Shown here: positions 317 through 42,911 of the stretch, piece by piece
How positions within the stretch are numbered: position 1 is the stretch's first letter
How the letters are laid out: each line of letters begins with the position of its first letter
Source: Candidatus Omnitrophota bacterium
GTDB taxonomy: Bacteria; Omnitrophota; Gorgyraeia; 2-02-FULL-51-18
Length of the DNA stretch: 42,911 nucleotides
Assembly: GCA_023248025.1 (NCBI GenBank)
Contig: JAHFFI010000002.1
Coordinates: 1 to 42,911, forward strand
Reading direction: 5' to 3'
The notes under the pieces: generated by a model
The model's input: the letters and a program-made list of their open reading frames with translations, nothing else
What the model was told of the DNA's origin: nothing
Database searches by the model: none
Program-made: the position numbers and the translations under genes

Positions 317-346
317 AAATTTTATTGACCCAAAGATAGAAAAATT

Positions 347-419
347 TAGCCCCAAGGGGAGTCGAACCCCTGTCCCTACCGTGAGAGGGTAGTGTCCTAG
401 GCCACTAGACGATGGGGCC
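347..419 (-). tRNA. tRNA-Glu (anticodon CUC)
   Basis: The reverse complement reads GGCCCCATCGTCTAGTGGCCTAGGACACTACCCTCTCACGGTAGGGACAGGGGTTCGACTCCCCTTGGGGCTA. It folds into a cloverleaf with a 7-bp acceptor stem, anticodon stem CTACC/GGTAG, loop CTCTCAC (anticodon CTC) and T-loop GGGGTTCGACTCCCC. It closely resembles canonical bacterial tRNA-Glu. CCA is not encoded. Confidence 0.9.
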
Positions 420-446
420 AAGTTCGCATTAGCCAAGCAGGACACC

Positions 447-474
447 ATTTTCGACTAAAATAGATTTTTGTCAA
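447..474 (-). promoter_or_regulatory. Putative sigma70 promoter for tRNA-Glu
   Basis: The minus strand reads TTGACA (469-474), a 16-nt spacer, then GAAAAT (447-452), about 25 nt upstream of the tRNA 5' end. Confidence 0.4.
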
Positions 475-487
475 TTGTTTCCTTGCC

Positions 488-516
488 TTGACAACCTGGC
501 ACCTGCTAGGTATACT
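488..516 (+). promoter_or_regulatory. Sigma70 promoter for the PG-binding lipoprotein gene
   Basis: TTGACA (488-493), a 17-nt spacer, then TATACT (511-516). This implies that the ORF-track start at 488 is not the real start. Confidence 0.65.
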
Positions 517-586
517 CGCTTGCATTATGGACGCCGAGCAAATTTCAAAAAAAACCTCTGTGGGATCAAAAAAAGGAAATCTTCAA

Positions 587-11438: not shown

Positions 11439-11908
11439 GCGAAAAAACCCCACTTACGCGCGACGGTTACGACAAAATAGTCAAAGAGATCGAGTATCTC
11501 AAGAGCATCAAAAGACGCGAGATTGCCGAAGATATCTCACGCGCCCGCGCGTTTGGTGACCTGAAAGAGAATGCCGAGTATGACGCCGCCAAGAATAGTC
11601 AGGCGCACAACGAAAGAAAGATAGCTGATCTCCAGGACCGCTTGGCCAATTCCCAGATCATTGATGAGTCCAAGATCGCGAAAGATCAGATCCTCATCGG
11701 GGCTATAGCGCTGCTGAAGGATTTAGATACTAAAGAAGAAATAACCTACACGATGGTCACTCAGGACGAGGTTAATTTTGATGAAGGAAAGATTTCCGTG
11801 ACATCGCCAATTGCAAAGGGCTTATTGGGAAAGAAAGTTGGCGATACCGCCGAGATTAAAATTCCTGCCGGGGTTCTTCACTACAAAGTTCTAAAGATCT
11901 CCCGCTAA
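11435..11908 (+). CDS. greA: Transcription elongation factor GreA
   Basis: The 157-aa product contains LKENAEYDAAK and a C-terminal S...SPIAKGLLGKKVGD. Confidence 0.9.
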   Translation: MSEKTPLTRDGYDKIVKEIEYLKSIKRREIAEDISRARAFGDLKENAEYDAAKNSQAHNERKIADLQDRLANSQIIDESKIAKDQILIGAIALLKDLDTKEEITYTMVTQDEVNFDEGKISVTSPIAKGLLGKKVGDTAEIKIPAGVLHYKVLKISR

Positions 11909-12863
11909 AATCTTCTATAATTTTTCGCAATTCCTTGGTATCGGTGCAAGTGTTTATCTTCCCACGAAATTCCGCGGATCCCGGCAGACCCTTGATGTAC
12001 CAGCAGGCGATTTTGCGCATGAGGAGGACTGCCGTGCGTTCGTCGCGGTGTTCGAGTTCAAGGTCGAAATGTTTCAAAAGTGTTTTTTTCTTTTCTTCGA
12101 ATGAAGGCTCAAGTAACGCTGTTTTTCCTTCAAGTGCGTTTTGAACATTTTTAAATATCCACGGATTTCCCAGACCCCCTCGCCCGATCATCACTGCGTC
12201 ACAGCCCGTTTCGTTTTTCATTCGCAGAGCGTCGTCACCCGAATTAATATCGCCGTTCCCGATGACGGGGATCTTCACAGCTTCTTTCACGCGCCGGATG
12301 GCACTGTAATCCGCAAAACCTGAATAGCCCTGTTTTCTGGTGCGGCCGTGGAGTGCCACGGCAGATAGTCCGCAGTCTTCGGCGATTTTAGCAATAGTGA
12401 CGGCTTCACAGCCTGTTTCATCCTCGCAGCCTTTTCGCATTTTTACGGTTACGGGAATGCGCTTGATAGCTTTTACGACAGCGGTAAAAATATTCCTGGC
12501 TTCTTCCGGCTTTGAAAGCAAAGCGGAGCCGGCGCCTTTGCCCGCGACTTTGGGAACGGGACAGCCCATATTGATATCTAAAAGGTCATAGCCCATGTCT
12601 TCTATCATGCGTGCGGCATCAGCCATGGCTTCGGGGCGCCAACCCACAATCTGCGCTCCGAGAGGCTTGTCTTTTTCCACAGTTTTCATGATTTCCCCGG
12701 TGGCTTCGTGCCCACGCACCATGGATTCGGCAGCGACCATCTCTAAAAAGCAGAATTCCATGCCATGTTCGCGAGCCAGAAGGCGATAGGCGAGGTCTGT
12801 GCATCCCGCCATAGGGGATTGGATGATATCCGTTTTAAGCGTGAGAGATTTAAGTCGAAGCAT
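11856..12863 (-). CDS. dusB: tRNA-dihydrouridine synthase
   Basis: It has SPMAGCTDLAYR, a TIM-barrel Dus signature, and a catalytic Cys in NMGCP. Its 3' end overlaps the greA 3' end by 53 nt. Confidence 0.9.
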   Translation of the reverse strand: MLRLKSLTLKTDIIQSPMAGCTDLAYRLLAREHGMEFCFLEMVAAESMVRGHEATGEIMKTVEKDKPLGAQIVGWRPEAMADAARMIEDMGYDLLDINMGCPVPKVAGKGAGSALLSKPEEARNIFTAVVKAIKRIPVTVKMRKGCEDETGCEAVTIAKIAEDCGLSAVALHGRTRKQGYSGFADYSAIRRVKEAVKIPVIGNGDINSGDDALRMKNETGCDAVMIGRGGLGNPWIFKNVQNALEGKTALLEPSFEEKKKTLLKHFDLELEHRDERTAVLLMRKIACWYIKGLPGSAEFRGKINTCTDTKELRKIIEDFSGRSLELCSEEPRQEF

Positions 12864-12911
12864 GGAAGCAATTTTAGCACAAACAGGCTAACCTGTCCCT
12901 TTTTCGCCATT

Positions 12912-13330
12912 CCGGACCGGGTCCGGGGGGTGCTTCCGACAGAGCCTGACTCGTAGGCGCCCTTGCCAGCTCCCGGACCCCGGAAGTGGTCCTTTGGGTC
13001 GACGTCTCAATTTCCCCTCCGAGGAAATTGAGACTCCGTTAAAGTTTGCGCGTGTGTAAGAGTAGGCTTCCATGGCGCGCAAACTTCAAAGGCGCCCCCA
13101 AGGACCACTTCCGGGGCCCTGTACCATTCGCTAATGTGTGTTCTATTTAAGACCTAAGAGAACCCGACGGGTGGCGAAGGGAATGCTCTATTTGCCCGGA
13201 GCCGCTAATAGACGGCGAGTCCGCCAGAGGACGGATCCGTCCACAAATCGCTCGTGCGATTTGATGGCGGAGACAAATAGACCTCGTCCTTTGACAGGCC
13301 CCGTCGGTTACTTGGATTAATGGGTCCGAA
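12912..13330 (-). repeat. Structured repeat element, copy A (sense is the minus strand)
   Basis: Its reverse complement is collinear with copies B, C and D and contains all conserved blocks plus the 52-nt Y-shaped insertion. It lies between the divergent dusB and typA genes, in the same sense as dusB. Confidence 0.8.
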
Positions 13331-13445
13331 AGAACCTCCTCCGGAAGCTAGCGACACTATCCGGTGGTTGAGTATTTGGGAAATATTGATTAATATGACA
13401 ATTAATTTGCTTATAGGTTGAAAATTATGGTACCTTGTACGACTT

Positions 13446-15269
13446 ATGAGTTCAGAGATTAAGATTAGAAATATAGCCATTGTAGCCCATGTCGACCACG
13501 GAAAGACCACGCTTGTTGATGCTATCCTGCGCCAGACCCACGTTCACCGCAACATTGAAGAGATGGGCGAGCGCATCATGGACTCGATGGATCTGGAGCG
13601 TGAGCGCGGCATCACCATCAAGGCTAAGAATGCCAGCGTCATTTATAAAGACGTGAAGGTTAATATAGTGGACACCCCCGGGCACGCGGATTTTGGTGGC
13701 GAAGTCGAGCGCACACTTCGCATGGTGGATGGAGTGCTTCTCGTTATCGACGCCAAAGACGGTCCGATGCCGCAAACTCGCTTTGTATTAAGGAAGGCGC
13801 TTGAGCTTGGCCTTCGCGCCATCGTCGTAATCAATAAAGTCGACAGACCAGATTCGCAAACGGACGACGTCGTAAACCGAACCTTTGATCTTTTCTGTGA
13901 GCTGGGCGCCAGCGAAGACCAGCTTGATTTTCCTATCGTGTATGCCTCGGCTTTAAAAGGCACGGCGTCGCTAGACAGTCACAAGCAGACCGACAATATC
14001 AATCCACTCATGGACACCATCCTTGCGCATGTTCCTGCGCCCCGAGCAAGCCAGGCCGACCCTTTGCAAATTTTAGTTTTAGCTCTGGCCCAGGACTCTT
14101 ATAAAGGAATGATGGGTATCGGAAAGATCACCGGCGGTGTTTTAAAGAAAGGCACCAACGTACTTCTCATTCGCCGCGATGGCACAAAAATAGTTTCCAA
14201 AGTGACAAACATATTGGCGTACCAAGGACTTGAGCGTGTGGAAATTGAAGAAGCAGGCGCGGGCGACATTGTAGCCGTGGCTGGTTTTGAAAAAATCAGC
14301 ATCGGTGAAACGATGACGGATCCTGAAAATCCCAGGCCACTTCAGCCGCCAGCCATTGACGAACCGACTGTGCAGATGACATTCGCTGTGAACACCAGTC
14401 CTTTTTCAGGTCGTGAGGGCAAATACGTGACTTCACGTGTGATTCGTGACCGCTTGTGGAAAGAATTAGAGACAAACGTTTCCTTGCGTGTCACGGAAAC
14501 GGACAGCCCCGATACTTTTCTCGTATCCGGTCGAGGAGAACTTCACCTGGCTATTTTAATTGAAACGATGCGCCGCGAAGGCTACGAGATGCAGGTTTCT
14601 CAGCCGGTGGTTATTTTGCGCGAAAAAAACGGTGTCAAACAGGAACCCTTTGAACTTCTTATGATTGATGCTCCGTCGCAATATCAGGGCACCGTTATGG
14701 AAGAGATCGGCCGCCGCAAGGGCATTATCAAAAATATGACGCAAGCGCCTACGGGTGAAATGCATTTCGAGTACCAGATCCCGACACGCGGTGTCATCGG
14801 CCTAAAAGGCGCGCTTATGACAAAAACACGCGGCACAGCCATTATGAACCACGTGTTTGACGAATATAAACCGCTGGCCGAGGCGATAAACCAACTTTCC
14901 CATGGTTCGTTGATCGCCAGCGAAACAGGCGAAACGAGCGCCTACGGTCTCTGCAACGCCCAGGAACGCGGTGAGCTTTTTATTGGCCCGGGCGTGAACG
15001 TTTATATGGGAATGATCATCGGCGAAAATTCGCGGGATGAAGATCTCGATATCAGTCCCTGTAAAACCAAAAAATTAACAAACATGCGTTCGGTCGGCAC
15101 CGACGACGCGCTGACACTGACTCCTCCGCGCGAACTGCCGCTGGAACTTGCCATTGAATACATCGGTCCCGATGAGCTCGTTGAGGTCACTCCGAAAAAT
15201 ATCCGCCTGCGCAAGAAGTCACTAGACCCCACGCTCAGAAAGCGCGTTCGCCGCCAACAGGAGGTTTAA
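13446..15269 (+). CDS. typA: Translational GTPase TypA/BipA
   Basis: It has [17 protein letters not shown] and NKVD, and its 607-aa length is typical. Confidence 0.95.
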
Positions 15270-16036: not shown

Positions 16037-16457
16037 AGGCTCTATTCAATAACCTAACCGCCGGGTCCTGTCAAAGGACAAGGTCTATTTGTCTCCGCCA
16101 TCAAATCGCACGAGCGATTTGTGGACGGATCCGTCCTCTGGCGGACTCGCCGTCTATTAGCGGCTCCGGGCAAATAGAGCATTCCCTTCGCCACCCTCGG
16201 GTTGCCTTGGTCTTAGATAGAGCACACATTAGCGAATGGTCTAGGACCCCGGAAGTGGTCCTTGGGGGCGCGTTTGTCGTTTGCGAGCCATGGAGACCCA
16301 CTTTCACACACGCGCAAACTTTAACGGAGTCTCAATTTCCTCGGAGGGGAAATTGAGACGTCGACCCAAAGGACTACTTCCGGGGTCCGGGACCTGGCAA
16401 TGGGTGTTCTTCGGGAGCGGGCAGGCCCCGTCGGTTACTTGGATTGATGGACCCGAT
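16037..16457 (+). repeat. Structured repeat element, copy B (full length, plus sense)
   Basis: Both terminal inverted repeats are present (16054-16070 and 16422-16438, with their extensions). It also carries the 24-bp internal helix and the 52-nt insertion. Confidence 0.8.
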
Positions 16458-16461
16458 AATA

Positions 16462-16490
16462 GTGCCAGAGGGGTCTGACCCCTCTGGCAC
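16462..16490. terminator. Perfect 12-bp GC-rich hairpin, possibly a bidirectional terminator
   Basis: The stem GTGCCAGAGGGG/CCCCTCTGGCAC has the loop TCTGA. It sits between the end of repeat B and the 3' end of the convergent 74-aa gene. The flanking U-tracts are weak. Confidence 0.45.
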
Positions 16491-16531
16491 CTGATGAAAA
16501 CTGCGTTTTCCTTTATTTATGGGCGATGCAC

Positions 16532-16756
16532 TTACCCAGGTGAGCGTCTGGGATCCTCGAGCAGGTCCTGGATCTCGAATTCGGCCGCTCCAAATTCACG
16601 GGCGACTCCGATAAGCTCGGGGCAGTTCTCGTACTGCTGCCGCTCAAGAGCTTCTTTGAGATAGAGCAGGGCCGTCAGCTTTATTGGGTGTTTTTCCACA
16701 AGGGTTCTCCTGTTGTTATTTGAGTTAAAACTCGCATAGGGCATTGTTTTGATCAT
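16532..16756 (-). CDS. Hypothetical 74-aa protein
   Basis: An AGGAGG RBS lies 5 nt upstream of the ATG. I do not recognise the family. Confidence 0.55.
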   Translation of the reverse strand: MIKTMPYASFNSNNNRRTLVEKHPIKLTALLYLKEALERQQYENCPELIGVAREFGAAEFEIQDLLEDPRRSPG

Positions 16757-16793
16757 CTCTTCCTCCTGTTGTGAAACGTTCTTAAAATGAAAA

Positions 16794-16818
16794 AACCCAC
16801 TACTTTTTGTAGTGGGTT
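16794..16818 (-). terminator. Intrinsic terminator (attenuator) between the leader ORF and the 74-aa gene
   Basis: On the minus strand the stem AACCCACTAC/GTAGTGGGTT has an AAAAA loop and is followed by TTTT. Its 5' arm can alternatively pair with AGTGGGTTGGG (16867-16877) over 11 bp. Confidence 0.6.
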
Positions 16819-16853
16819 GGGGAAATGCTATCGAGCCGAACTAGATGCTTACT

Positions 16854-16985
16854 TTAGAGATCTCCTCCCAACCCACTGTCTGTGCGCTTGTGCATGCAAT
16901 AATGACAAAGCACCGGCGTCGCAGGGCGTACAATAGCCGCGCGCCAGAAAGACAATACGTTGAGTTTTTGAGAGTTAAGTGACAT
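16854..16985 (-). CDS. Candidate 43-aa leader peptide (MSLNSQKLNVLSFWRAAIVRPATPVLCHYCMHKRTDSGLGGDL)
   Basis: It is too short to appear in the ORF track. The ATG follows AAGGAA and lies about 15 nt after the predicted TSS. Its last codons overlap the antiterminator arm. Confidence 0.3.
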   Translation of the reverse strand: MSLNSQKLNVLSFWRAAIVRPATPVLCHYCMHKRTDSGLGGDL

Positions 16986-17007
16986 CTAATTTCCTTTAAT
17001 AGTCAGT

Positions 17008-17035
17008 ATTATACCCCAATTTTTTTATTTGTCAA
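17008..17035 (-). promoter_or_regulatory. Near-consensus sigma70 promoter
   Basis: The minus strand reads TTGACA (17030-17035), a 16-nt spacer, then TATAAT (17008-17013). It overlaps the stop codon of the ABC-2 permease gene. Confidence 0.7.
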
Positions 17036-24579: not shown

Positions 24580-24937
24580 ATAGTACAGCCATTGCTGTAA
24601 CCGCCGGGTCCTGTCAAAGGACAAGGTCTATTTGTCCTCGCCGTCTATTAGCGGCTCCGGGCAAATAGAGCATTCCCTTCGCCACCCGTCGGGTTCTCTT
24701 TGTTTTAATAGAACTCTCATTAGCGAATGGTCTAGGACCCCGGAAGTGGTCCTTGGGGGCGCGTTTGAGATTGGCGAGCCATGGAAACCTACTCTTACAC
24801 ACGAGCCAATCTCAACCGAGCGAGAGATTTCCTCGGAGGGGAAATCCGAGCGTCGACCCAAAGGACTACTTCCGGGGTCCGGGACCTGGAAATTCCCCCT
24901 CTGGACAGGGTATTGGTTAGTGGGTATAATCACTTGT
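24580..24937 (+). repeat. Structured repeat element, copy C (plus sense, lacks the 52-nt insertion, diverged termini)
   Basis: It is collinear with copy B. Hairpin 1 is completely re-paired (TTGAGATTGGC/GCCAATCTCAA). Confidence 0.8.
24902..24930 (+). promoter_or_regulatory. Putative sigma70 promoter for the peroxiredoxin gene, embedded in the 3' end of repeat C
   Basis: TGGACA (24902-24907), a 17-nt spacer, then TATAAT (24925-24930). A GGAGG RBS lies at 24947-24951 and the ATG at 24960. Confidence 0.5.
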
Positions 24938-42620: not shown

Positions 42621-42649
42621 AGTATATAAAAAATGCACACGCAAGTCAA
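42621..42649 (-). promoter_or_regulatory. Sigma70 promoter of the nuo operon
   Basis: The minus strand reads TTGACT (42644-42649), a 17-nt spacer, then TATACT (42621-42626). Confidence 0.65.
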
Positions 42650-42669: not shown

Positions 42670-42911
42670 ATAGTCTATCAATCCGCGTAACCGACGGGGC
42701 CTGGCTCGGGCGCGCCCTATTTGTCCTCGCCCTTACGGGCTCCGGGCAAATAGGGACCGCACCACTCGCCACCCGTCGGGTTGTCTGGGTCTTAAGATAG
42801 AACACTCTATTAGCGAATGGTCTAGGACCCCGGAAGTAGTCCTTGGGGGCGCGTTTGTCGTTTGCGAGCCACGGAAACCTACTTTTACACACGAGCAAAC
42901 GACAATCGAGC
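42670..42911 (+). repeat. Structured repeat element, copy D (plus sense, truncated by the window end)
   Basis: It is collinear with the first ~240 nt of copies B and C. It begins about 20 nt beyond the nuo -35 and runs in the divergent orientation. Confidence 0.8.

Follow-up and report, generated by a model that had tools for sequence, protein, structure and literature searches.

The genes dusB and typA of this Candidatus Omnitrophota bacterium are transcribed away from each other, and the 582 nt that separate them (12864-13445, from the dusB ATG at 12863 to the typA ATG at 13446) are largely taken up by a structured element that recurs elsewhere in the 42,911 nt considered here (the window). 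Is this element, which I will call copy A, a 5' leader of dusB, as its position and orientation had suggested in the initial annotation, or is it an insertion into a region that related genomes possess without it? I will argue that copy A is probably the latter, an insertion of a lineage-specific, non-coding, non-autonomous mobile repeat resembling a MITE, and that it has since partly decayed.

Position and Parts of Copy A

The dusB gene (11856..12863, minus strand) encodes a tRNA-dihydrouridine synthase (Pfam Dus, E 2.5e-83), and its divergent neighbour typA/bipA (13446..15269, plus strand) is matched by Pfam GTP_EFTU and BipA_C. Copy A, as delimited by its resemblance to copies B, C, and D (in BLAST and in repeat searches) and by alignments, extends over 12912..13335 at full length, both terminal repeats included. 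It thus fills the region much as had been described, taking up about 420 of the 582 nt, and the spacer in the window without it comes to about 160 nt. The sense strand of copy A is the minus strand, and it is the sole minus-sense copy in the window, copies B, C, and D being in plus sense. Its 3' end (12912) lies 48 nt from the dusB ATG (12863). The orientation and the short distance to the gene both agree with what the initial annotation had noticed. The fold of copy A has a z-score of -7.9.

Taken in the sense direction, all on the minus strand, copy A begins with a 5' terminal repeat (TCGGACCCATTAATCCAAGTAACCGACGGGGCCTG; 13295..13335) that also matches the 5' ends of copies D, E, and F. Domain 1 follows (13160..13312; covariance model R1 match of 110.5 bits, with further evidence from RNAalifold and pair counts) and carries at its tip an insert of 52 nt (13220..13271, placed by alignments). 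The insert had been noted as shared with copy B, and it is indeed identical in the two and present in no other copy. Domain 2 (12965..13135) was recognized by covariance model R2 (184.7 bits) and as an inverted repeat, the arms of its helix of about 24 bp lying at 13093-13119 and 12975-13001. The G-C pair reported in copy A where B and C have G-U is found at columns 235/354, where E and F also have G-C. The remainder (12912..12964) is a decayed 3' tail and 3' terminal repeat, within which the long-range helix P3 is broken. The 3' repeat (CAGGCTCTGTCGGAAGC), described as diverged yet able to pair with the 5' end, does so through 12 Watson-Crick pairs and three G-U pairs, with two mismatches, and the pairing is present in the MFE fold.

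The Start of dusB Relative to Copy A

If copy A were a cis-regulatory leader of dusB, it would act as an attenuator, a riboswitch-like element, or a processing signal. It resembles such cis-acting mRNA leaders (riboswitches, attenuators) in presenting a large and very stable fold upstream of a gene and co-oriented with it, and there is no strong terminator between copy A and dusB. A promoter scan, however, predicted a sigma-70-type promoter with an extended -10 box between the 3' end of copy A and the dusB ATG (12899..12871, minus strand), composed of GGGACA, a spacer of 17 nt, and a TG-extended TAAAAT (TGCTAAAAT). The predicted -10 box ends 7 nt before the ATG, and copy A ends 12 nt upstream of the predicted -35 box, so that the element lies outside the interval between the predicted transcription start and the start codon. 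The same scan gave no promoter-like site upstream of copy A on its sense strand.

The predicted promoter finds a counterpart in other genomes. In each of the three relatives that share the local gene order (L001, L002, and L004), a TGnTAnAnT box precedes the ATG of dusB by 6-7 nt, and a Shine-Dalgarno sequence is absent before dusB in all four genomes (in the window, within 12858-12915, minus strand). The conserved box, together with the absence of a Shine-Dalgarno sequence, points to leaderless or nearly leaderless dusB mRNAs in the lineage, and the closeness of the box to the ATG makes it most likely that transcription of dusB begins on or beside the start codon, beyond the 3' end of copy A. 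This placement of the start comes from prediction and conservation rather than from mapping. As far as these predictions go, copy A is most likely not part of the dusB mRNA, and the earlier suggestion that copy A is the 5' leader of dusB, with any transcript of the element running into the gene, is not supported: the promoter predicted for dusB, conserved in relatives, lies between the element and the ATG, and none is seen upstream of the element.

Other features of copy A also set it apart from cis-acting leaders. It is not conserved at the orthologous locus in relatives with the same gene order, it is degraded structurally at the end proximal to dusB, the other copies of the repeat are not found upstream of comparable genes, and the family has neither a downstream gene nor an orientation in common. 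A role as leader is consequently very improbable. For genome annotation, this removes a false lead, in that dusB here and in three relatives is apparently transcribed from a promoter abutting the start codon, and from that arrangement the 420-nt structure upstream would be an insertion rather than a regulator.

The dusB-typA Region in Related Genomes

The initial annotation had proposed a comparison with related genomes as a means to distinguish an insertion from an ancient fixed leader. Three MAGs keep the gene order greA-dusB/typA-pseudouridine synthase (rluB-like), with proteins 68-70% (DusB) and 75-78% (TypA) identical to those in the window. The element is absent from the dusB-typA spacer in each, a spacer of about 88 nt in L004, 167 nt in L002, and about 520 nt in L001. 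All three relatives are distant, as the DusB identities indicate, and absence at the orthologous site should be read with that in mind. The long spacer in L001 holds a gene for a cold-shock protein (csp; 2720-2930, MTKGTVKWFSDQKGYGF...), from which it appears that the spacer has accepted different insertions in different lineages.

Covariance models built for domain 1 (R1) and domain 2 (R2) found only the six known copies in the 208 kb searched, of which about 165 kb, belonging to 14 related MAGs, gave no match. The element-free spacers and the outcome of these searches together argue that copy A was inserted in this lineage only and is not an ancient fixed leader.

Copies of the Repeat

There are four copies in the 43-kb window. 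By BLAST, copy A (12905-13335, minus strand) is 93% identical to copy B over 351 nt (E 1e-149), 87% to copy C over 259 nt, and 84% to copy D over 164 nt, far more than chance would give. The copies occur in a short form of about 340 nt and a long form of about 420 nt, the latter with the structured insert of 52 nt. Copy B (~16040-16456, plus strand) is of the long form, has the best-kept 3' terminal repeat, and lies between the stop codon of the pseudouridine synthase gene and a 12-bp hairpin. Copy C (~24597-24930, plus strand), of the short form and with a decayed 3' end, lies between the co-directional genes pfkB and ahpC. Copy D (42673..42911, plus strand) is cut by the end of the window and is divergent from the nuo operon promoter.

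Copies outside the window were reached by a protein query, the query being a spurious ORF that runs across copy C. It led to three pseudo-proteins from ENA assemblies and to two DNA copies of the short form, copy E (1295-~1637 of contig L015), situated between divergent and convergent genes, and copy F (1-~330 of contig L016), which precedes a c-di-GMP-I riboswitch. One cluster at 90% held three further pseudo-ORFs from NCBI contigs (P0005-P0007), and these, with P0001, represent further copies on other contigs. The copies in the window, copies E and F, and the copies marked by pseudo-ORFs make at least nine that are distinct. A full HMMER scan of 1.84 billion protein representatives returned the three pseudo-proteins of the first query and no others in that frame, and an antisense ORF used as a protein query gave no further copies. 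Exact patterns from the core of the element had zero matches in collections of genomes, metagenomes, and viral contigs, a negative result weakened by the fact that the genome scan and one metagenome scan required TTGGGGG; copies E and F have TTTGGGG, so that these scans were narrower and would miss their subtype. The element had no match among PLSDB plasmids. The further copies found in public data amount to a handful.

All of the copies are intergenic, and those in the window have housekeeping genes as neighbours. Their contexts are otherwise mixed: B comes after a gene, C lies between co-directional genes, and D and E are divergent from a neighbouring operon. Position relative to a downstream gene is thus not a property of the family, and no gene or orientation is common to the neighbours of all copies. 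Nor do the copies have promoter-like or terminator-like sites that are shared or that lie upstream on the sense strand, barring one weak site internal to copies E and F (TTGCCA-18-AATACT), which is absent from the copies in the window. The window contains no gene for a transposase, a nuclease, or a reverse transcriptase, TnpB, IscB, and TnpA included. The possibility that the repeat itself encodes a protein was rejected, since reading frames differ between the A/B and C/E/F types and none is conserved across the subfamilies.

Two observations concern the surroundings of the copies outside the window. Copy E has immediately upstream of it (1262-1290 of L015) an isolated antisense piece of the long helix of domain 2, from the 3' arm (AACCCCGGAAGTGGTCCTTGGGTCAACG), which suggests a truncated second copy or a nested insertion. 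On L016, the c-di-GMP-I riboswitch (453-542, plus strand; 65.5 bits, against a gathering score of 35) comes about 120 nt after copy F and immediately precedes an ORF whose start is at 548.

A Fold Conserved on One Strand

The consensus structure given by RNAalifold for the six copies has two domains. Domain 1 consists of the helix that closes it (CCGACGGG/CCCGUCGG), another, long helix around CUAUUUGUC/GGCAAAUAG, and a hairpin at the apex. In domain 2, the helix of about 24 bp closes a three-way junction with two hairpins, and around the domain there is a long-range helix of 10 bp (AGAAUACUCU/AGAGUAUUCU in E and F, AGAGCACAC/GGGUGUUCU in B). The 52-nt insert folds on its own in MFE structures, as two hairpins closed by UCCGCCA/UGGCGGA.

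The structure comprises 96 pairs, and 95.8% of 520 cells are paired over the six copies; when partners were slid by 1-3 columns as a control, the proportion fell to 38-53%. Helix 5 is the least regular, with 74% paired and failures in copies A and C. Seven unpaired cells belong to copy A, and A, B, and C have 5-7 each. Both sides have changed at eight of the 96 pairs, with compensatory changes at five pairs in hairpin 1 of domain 2, counts that were taken from the six DNA copies and do not represent independent events, since the copies are related. The covariation score is 0.092, as compared to 0.058 in shuffled alignments, none of 500 of which reached the observed value. Hairpin 1 exists in three mutually compensated variants (AAGTTTGC/GCAAACTT, GTCGTTTGC/GCAAACGAC, and GAGATTGGC/GCCAATCTC), and that of copy B is a hybrid, its 5' arm like that of D and its 3' arm like that of A.

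The fold is also strand-specific. G-U combinations account for 37 cells, at 12 pairs, and A-C combinations for 3 cells, at 2 pairs, and in all five full copies the sense strand folds better than the antisense strand, by 8-12 kcal/mol. The fold, then, is kept by compensatory changes and on one strand.

At the gathering threshold of Rfam 15, tRNA-Glu alone reached threshold within the window, and permissive scans of copies A, B, and E (E up to 10) returned only hairpin-like families at chance level. An identity as a riboswitch, a ribozyme, or a known ncRNA was accordingly rejected for want of an Rfam match, and the matches to CRISPR repeats and microRNA precursors were taken as chance matches to hairpins.

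A functional RNA role for the family is also possible, and the copies might be a dispersed gene family for a trans-acting structured RNA, the fold being kept by RNA function and not by mobility alone. Such an RNA could be, for example, a guide or scaffold for a transposon-encoded nuclease or recombinase elsewhere, as in PATEs, the gene-less derivatives of IS200/IS605 that keep an omega-RNA; gene-less elements of this sort have been described as often encoding omega-RNAs that are used in trans (PMC10055086). The strand specificity and compensatory changes are what one would expect of it, and the same can be said of the core, far better conserved than the termini (see below), of the insert, which is modular and self-folding and sits at a helix tip with the rest of the structure intact, of the presence of TCGG before or at the beginning of the three best-kept 5' ends, and of the outcome at the decayed ends, where no target duplication was found. 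Against this, the scans just described found no match to HEARO, IS605-orfB, or any other Rfam family (E up to 10), the copies are not consistently flanked by a promoter or a terminator on the sense strand, genes for TnpB, IscB, and TnpA are absent from the window, and the mismatches in copies A, B, and C have gone unrepaired. The element moreover has terminal inverted repeats of 35 nt, which IS200/IS605 elements lack. I consider this explanation unlikely on balance.

The likeness to PATEs with omega-RNAs for TnpB or IscB nevertheless goes some way. Both are non-autonomous, protein-free, and multi-copy, both have a strand-specific structured RNA kept by covariation, PATEs make no target duplication and none was found at the decayed ends here, and the present family, like PATEs, would depend on proteins acting in trans (PMC10055086). 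The differences lie in the 35-nt terminal inverted repeats, in folds that lack the matching paired subterminal LE/RE hairpins, in the absence of any Rfam omega-RNA or HEARO match and of a TnpA, TnpB, or IscB gene in the 43 kb, and in the flanks, which have no conserved motif beyond a possible TCGG. The features that define PATEs, no terminal inverted repeats and a match to known omega-RNA models, are not those of this family.

It is likewise doubtful that the repeat encodes, as the functional unit of a mobile element, a structured RNA not described before, some 340 nt in length and folded into two domains that hold about 96 base pairs. Were that the case, the RNA might serve as guide or scaffold for a nuclease or recombinase encoded in trans, or the fold might itself drive mobility, and the terminal repeats would be only the outer helix of the RNA. 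With a transcript and a partner protein in hand, the family would become a new class among transposon-associated RNAs; without them, it counts as a further family of structured MITEs, from a lineage not yet cultivated.

Termini and the Gradient of Conservation

The initial annotation took the termini to be true inverted repeats of about 35 nt, pointing to the recurrence of the right edge of copy A at the right edge of copy B. The recurrence is there, on the same strand and at 91% over 35 nt (13295-13329 versus 16422-16456), and the last 35 nt of copy B are the inverse of the 5' ends of both A (91%) and D (90%). The general statement holds for this comparison of B with A and D, but a well-kept 3' repeat is found in copy B alone, those of A and C being degenerate and those of E and F barely recognizable. 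TCGGRYCCATYAATCCAAGTAACCGACGGGGCCTG represents the ends of the element, and the tail of P0005 back-translates to a repeat resembling GGTTAC.TTGGAT. Since weaker remnants are seen behind the tail of A, C, E, F, and P0005, terminal inverted repeats seem to be ancestral. For the same reason, remnants in the same place, a reading of the 3' repeat of B as a separate inverted partial copy was rejected.

No direct repeat shared by the two ends of copy A was seen, the ends of the element being much decayed. The sole candidate, the 7-mer CCGATAA, occurs near both ends of B, where about 0.3 chance matches would be expected and where it lies partly within the repeat itself, and it is not significant. TCGG is found at the 5' boundary of A and of E and at the inverted end of B; in its place there is ATAG in D, ACAG in C, and CAGG at the 5' end of B.

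Mean pairwise identity declines from the core outward, from 96% in domain 1, 88% in domain 2, and 86% in the linker to 74% in the 5' repeat, 58% in the tail, and 37% in the zone of the 3' repeat. A core better kept than the termini is the reverse of what is normal for an element recognized by a transposase through its terminal inverted repeats.

This gradient bears on whether the repeat is simply an ordinary MITE with terminal inverted repeats, moved as double-stranded DNA by a DDE transposase. Its internal helices would then be incidental nested palindromes, the symmetry of which arises from processes at the level of DNA (gene conversion, hairpin-templated repair) and not from any function of a single strand. 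The terminal repeats of about 35 nt are suitable for such an element, and in size and intergenic location the repeat resembles typical bacterial MITEs, tabulated at lengths of about 100 to 435 bp (PMC3184786). The hybrid hairpin 1 of copy B suggests exchange between copies, conversion would homogenize cores more than edges, and the solo arm fragment beside copy E can be counted on the same side. Gene conversion between copies could in fact explain part of the gradient, as the hybrid hairpin hints. The excess of G-U over A-C cells and the advantage of one strand in folding, however, are unexpected under duplex symmetry alone, no target duplication was found at the decayed ends, and the terminal inverted repeats, needed for recognition by transposase, are the least conserved part of the element. 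Neither the gradient nor the G-U asymmetry sits well with a plain DDE-type MITE, and I regard this account as improbable, a little more so than a trans-acting RNA.

A Probable MITE-Like Structured Repeat

What was observed at dusB and elsewhere, a repeated sequence spread through intergenic regions, absent from syntenic sites, devoid of coding capacity, and conserved in a fold specific to one strand, agrees best with the insertion of a MITE-like repeat put forward at the beginning. The ancestral unit would have consisted of a 5' terminal repeat, domain 1, a linker, domain 2, a tail, and a 3' terminal repeat, and in the single-stranded sense form the two terminal repeats could pair as an outer helix. 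Copies presumably spread with the help of an enzyme encoded at another place in the genome and acting in trans, and what selection for propagation preserved may have been the single strand in its folded state, either as a DNA intermediate or as a transcript. Copy A would have landed in the divergent control region of dusB and typA, 12 nt upstream of the dusB -35 box, leaving the promoters on both the dusB and the typA sides outside of it. Its 3' side would since have decayed, with loss of the long-range helix and divergence of the 3' repeat, and copy A would most likely now be neutral baggage, the two promoters having been pushed about 420 bp apart.

The family has much in common with bacterial MITEs and other structured intergenic repeats (Correia/NEMIS, ERIC/IRU, RUP, BOX, MaeMITE, Nezha), which are likewise short, non-coding, multi-copy, and intergenic, with terminal inverted repeats and a stable predicted fold as RNA or DNA. 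Bacterial MITEs, tabulated at about 100 to 435 bp, fold stably, are often near promoters, and sometimes supply them (PMC3184786), a point of comparison for the 3' end of copy C near ahpC. In contrast to the named MITEs, with none of which it shares sequence similarity, the family is among the larger ones (340-420 nt), has a two-domain, multi-helix structure in place of one imperfect palindrome, and is far better conserved in its core than at its termini. Furthermore, neither a duplication of TA nor any other target duplication is seen at the decayed ends, and the family has no known cognate IS. It is thus new in sequence and unusually ornate, yet of a known kind, and it illustrates cleanly how a mobile-type repeat can conserve its internal fold, and not its termini, with strand-specific G-U pairs and with compensatory changes that proceed stepwise from copy to copy.

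Other Sites in the Window

The decayed 3' repeat of copy C contains a near-consensus promoter sequence (24902-24930, plus strand; TGGACA-17-TATAAT, 11 of 12 positions), situated 30 nt before the start of ahpC (24960). Its TATAAT aligns with ATTGAT in the terminal repeat of copy B, and, judging from the sequence, copy C may have donated the promoter of ahpC.

The 12-bp hairpin that adjoins copy B (16463-16491) ends a small convergent gene. On the minus strand, a perfect TTGACA-16-TATAAT (17035..17008) is followed by an ORF of 43 amino acids (16854-16985) and an intrinsic terminator (16818..16794), after which come an ORF of 74 amino acids (16532-16756) with no Pfam match and then the hairpin. 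From this succession of signals, the region 16463-17035 (minus strand) looks like a small unannotated transcription unit. The core of the hairpin (GGGGTCTGACCCC) recurs as GGGGTCAGACCCC in the dusB-typA spacer of L002 (9855-9872) and may be a terminator-like or small palindromic motif shared within the lineage.

Near the beginning of the window, 36 nt of the 3' part of tRNA-Glu(CUC) (346-420, minus strand) are repeated at 83% identity 213 nt away (129-164 versus 342-377). The repeat could be the remnant of a duplicated tRNA end, for example an old integration scar. Near the other end, the TTG annotated as the start of the nuoA ORF (42644) is overlapped by a promoter-like sequence (42621-42649, minus strand; TTGACT-17-TATACT). 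The Pfam match does not begin before residue 40, and nuoA probably starts further downstream than annotated.
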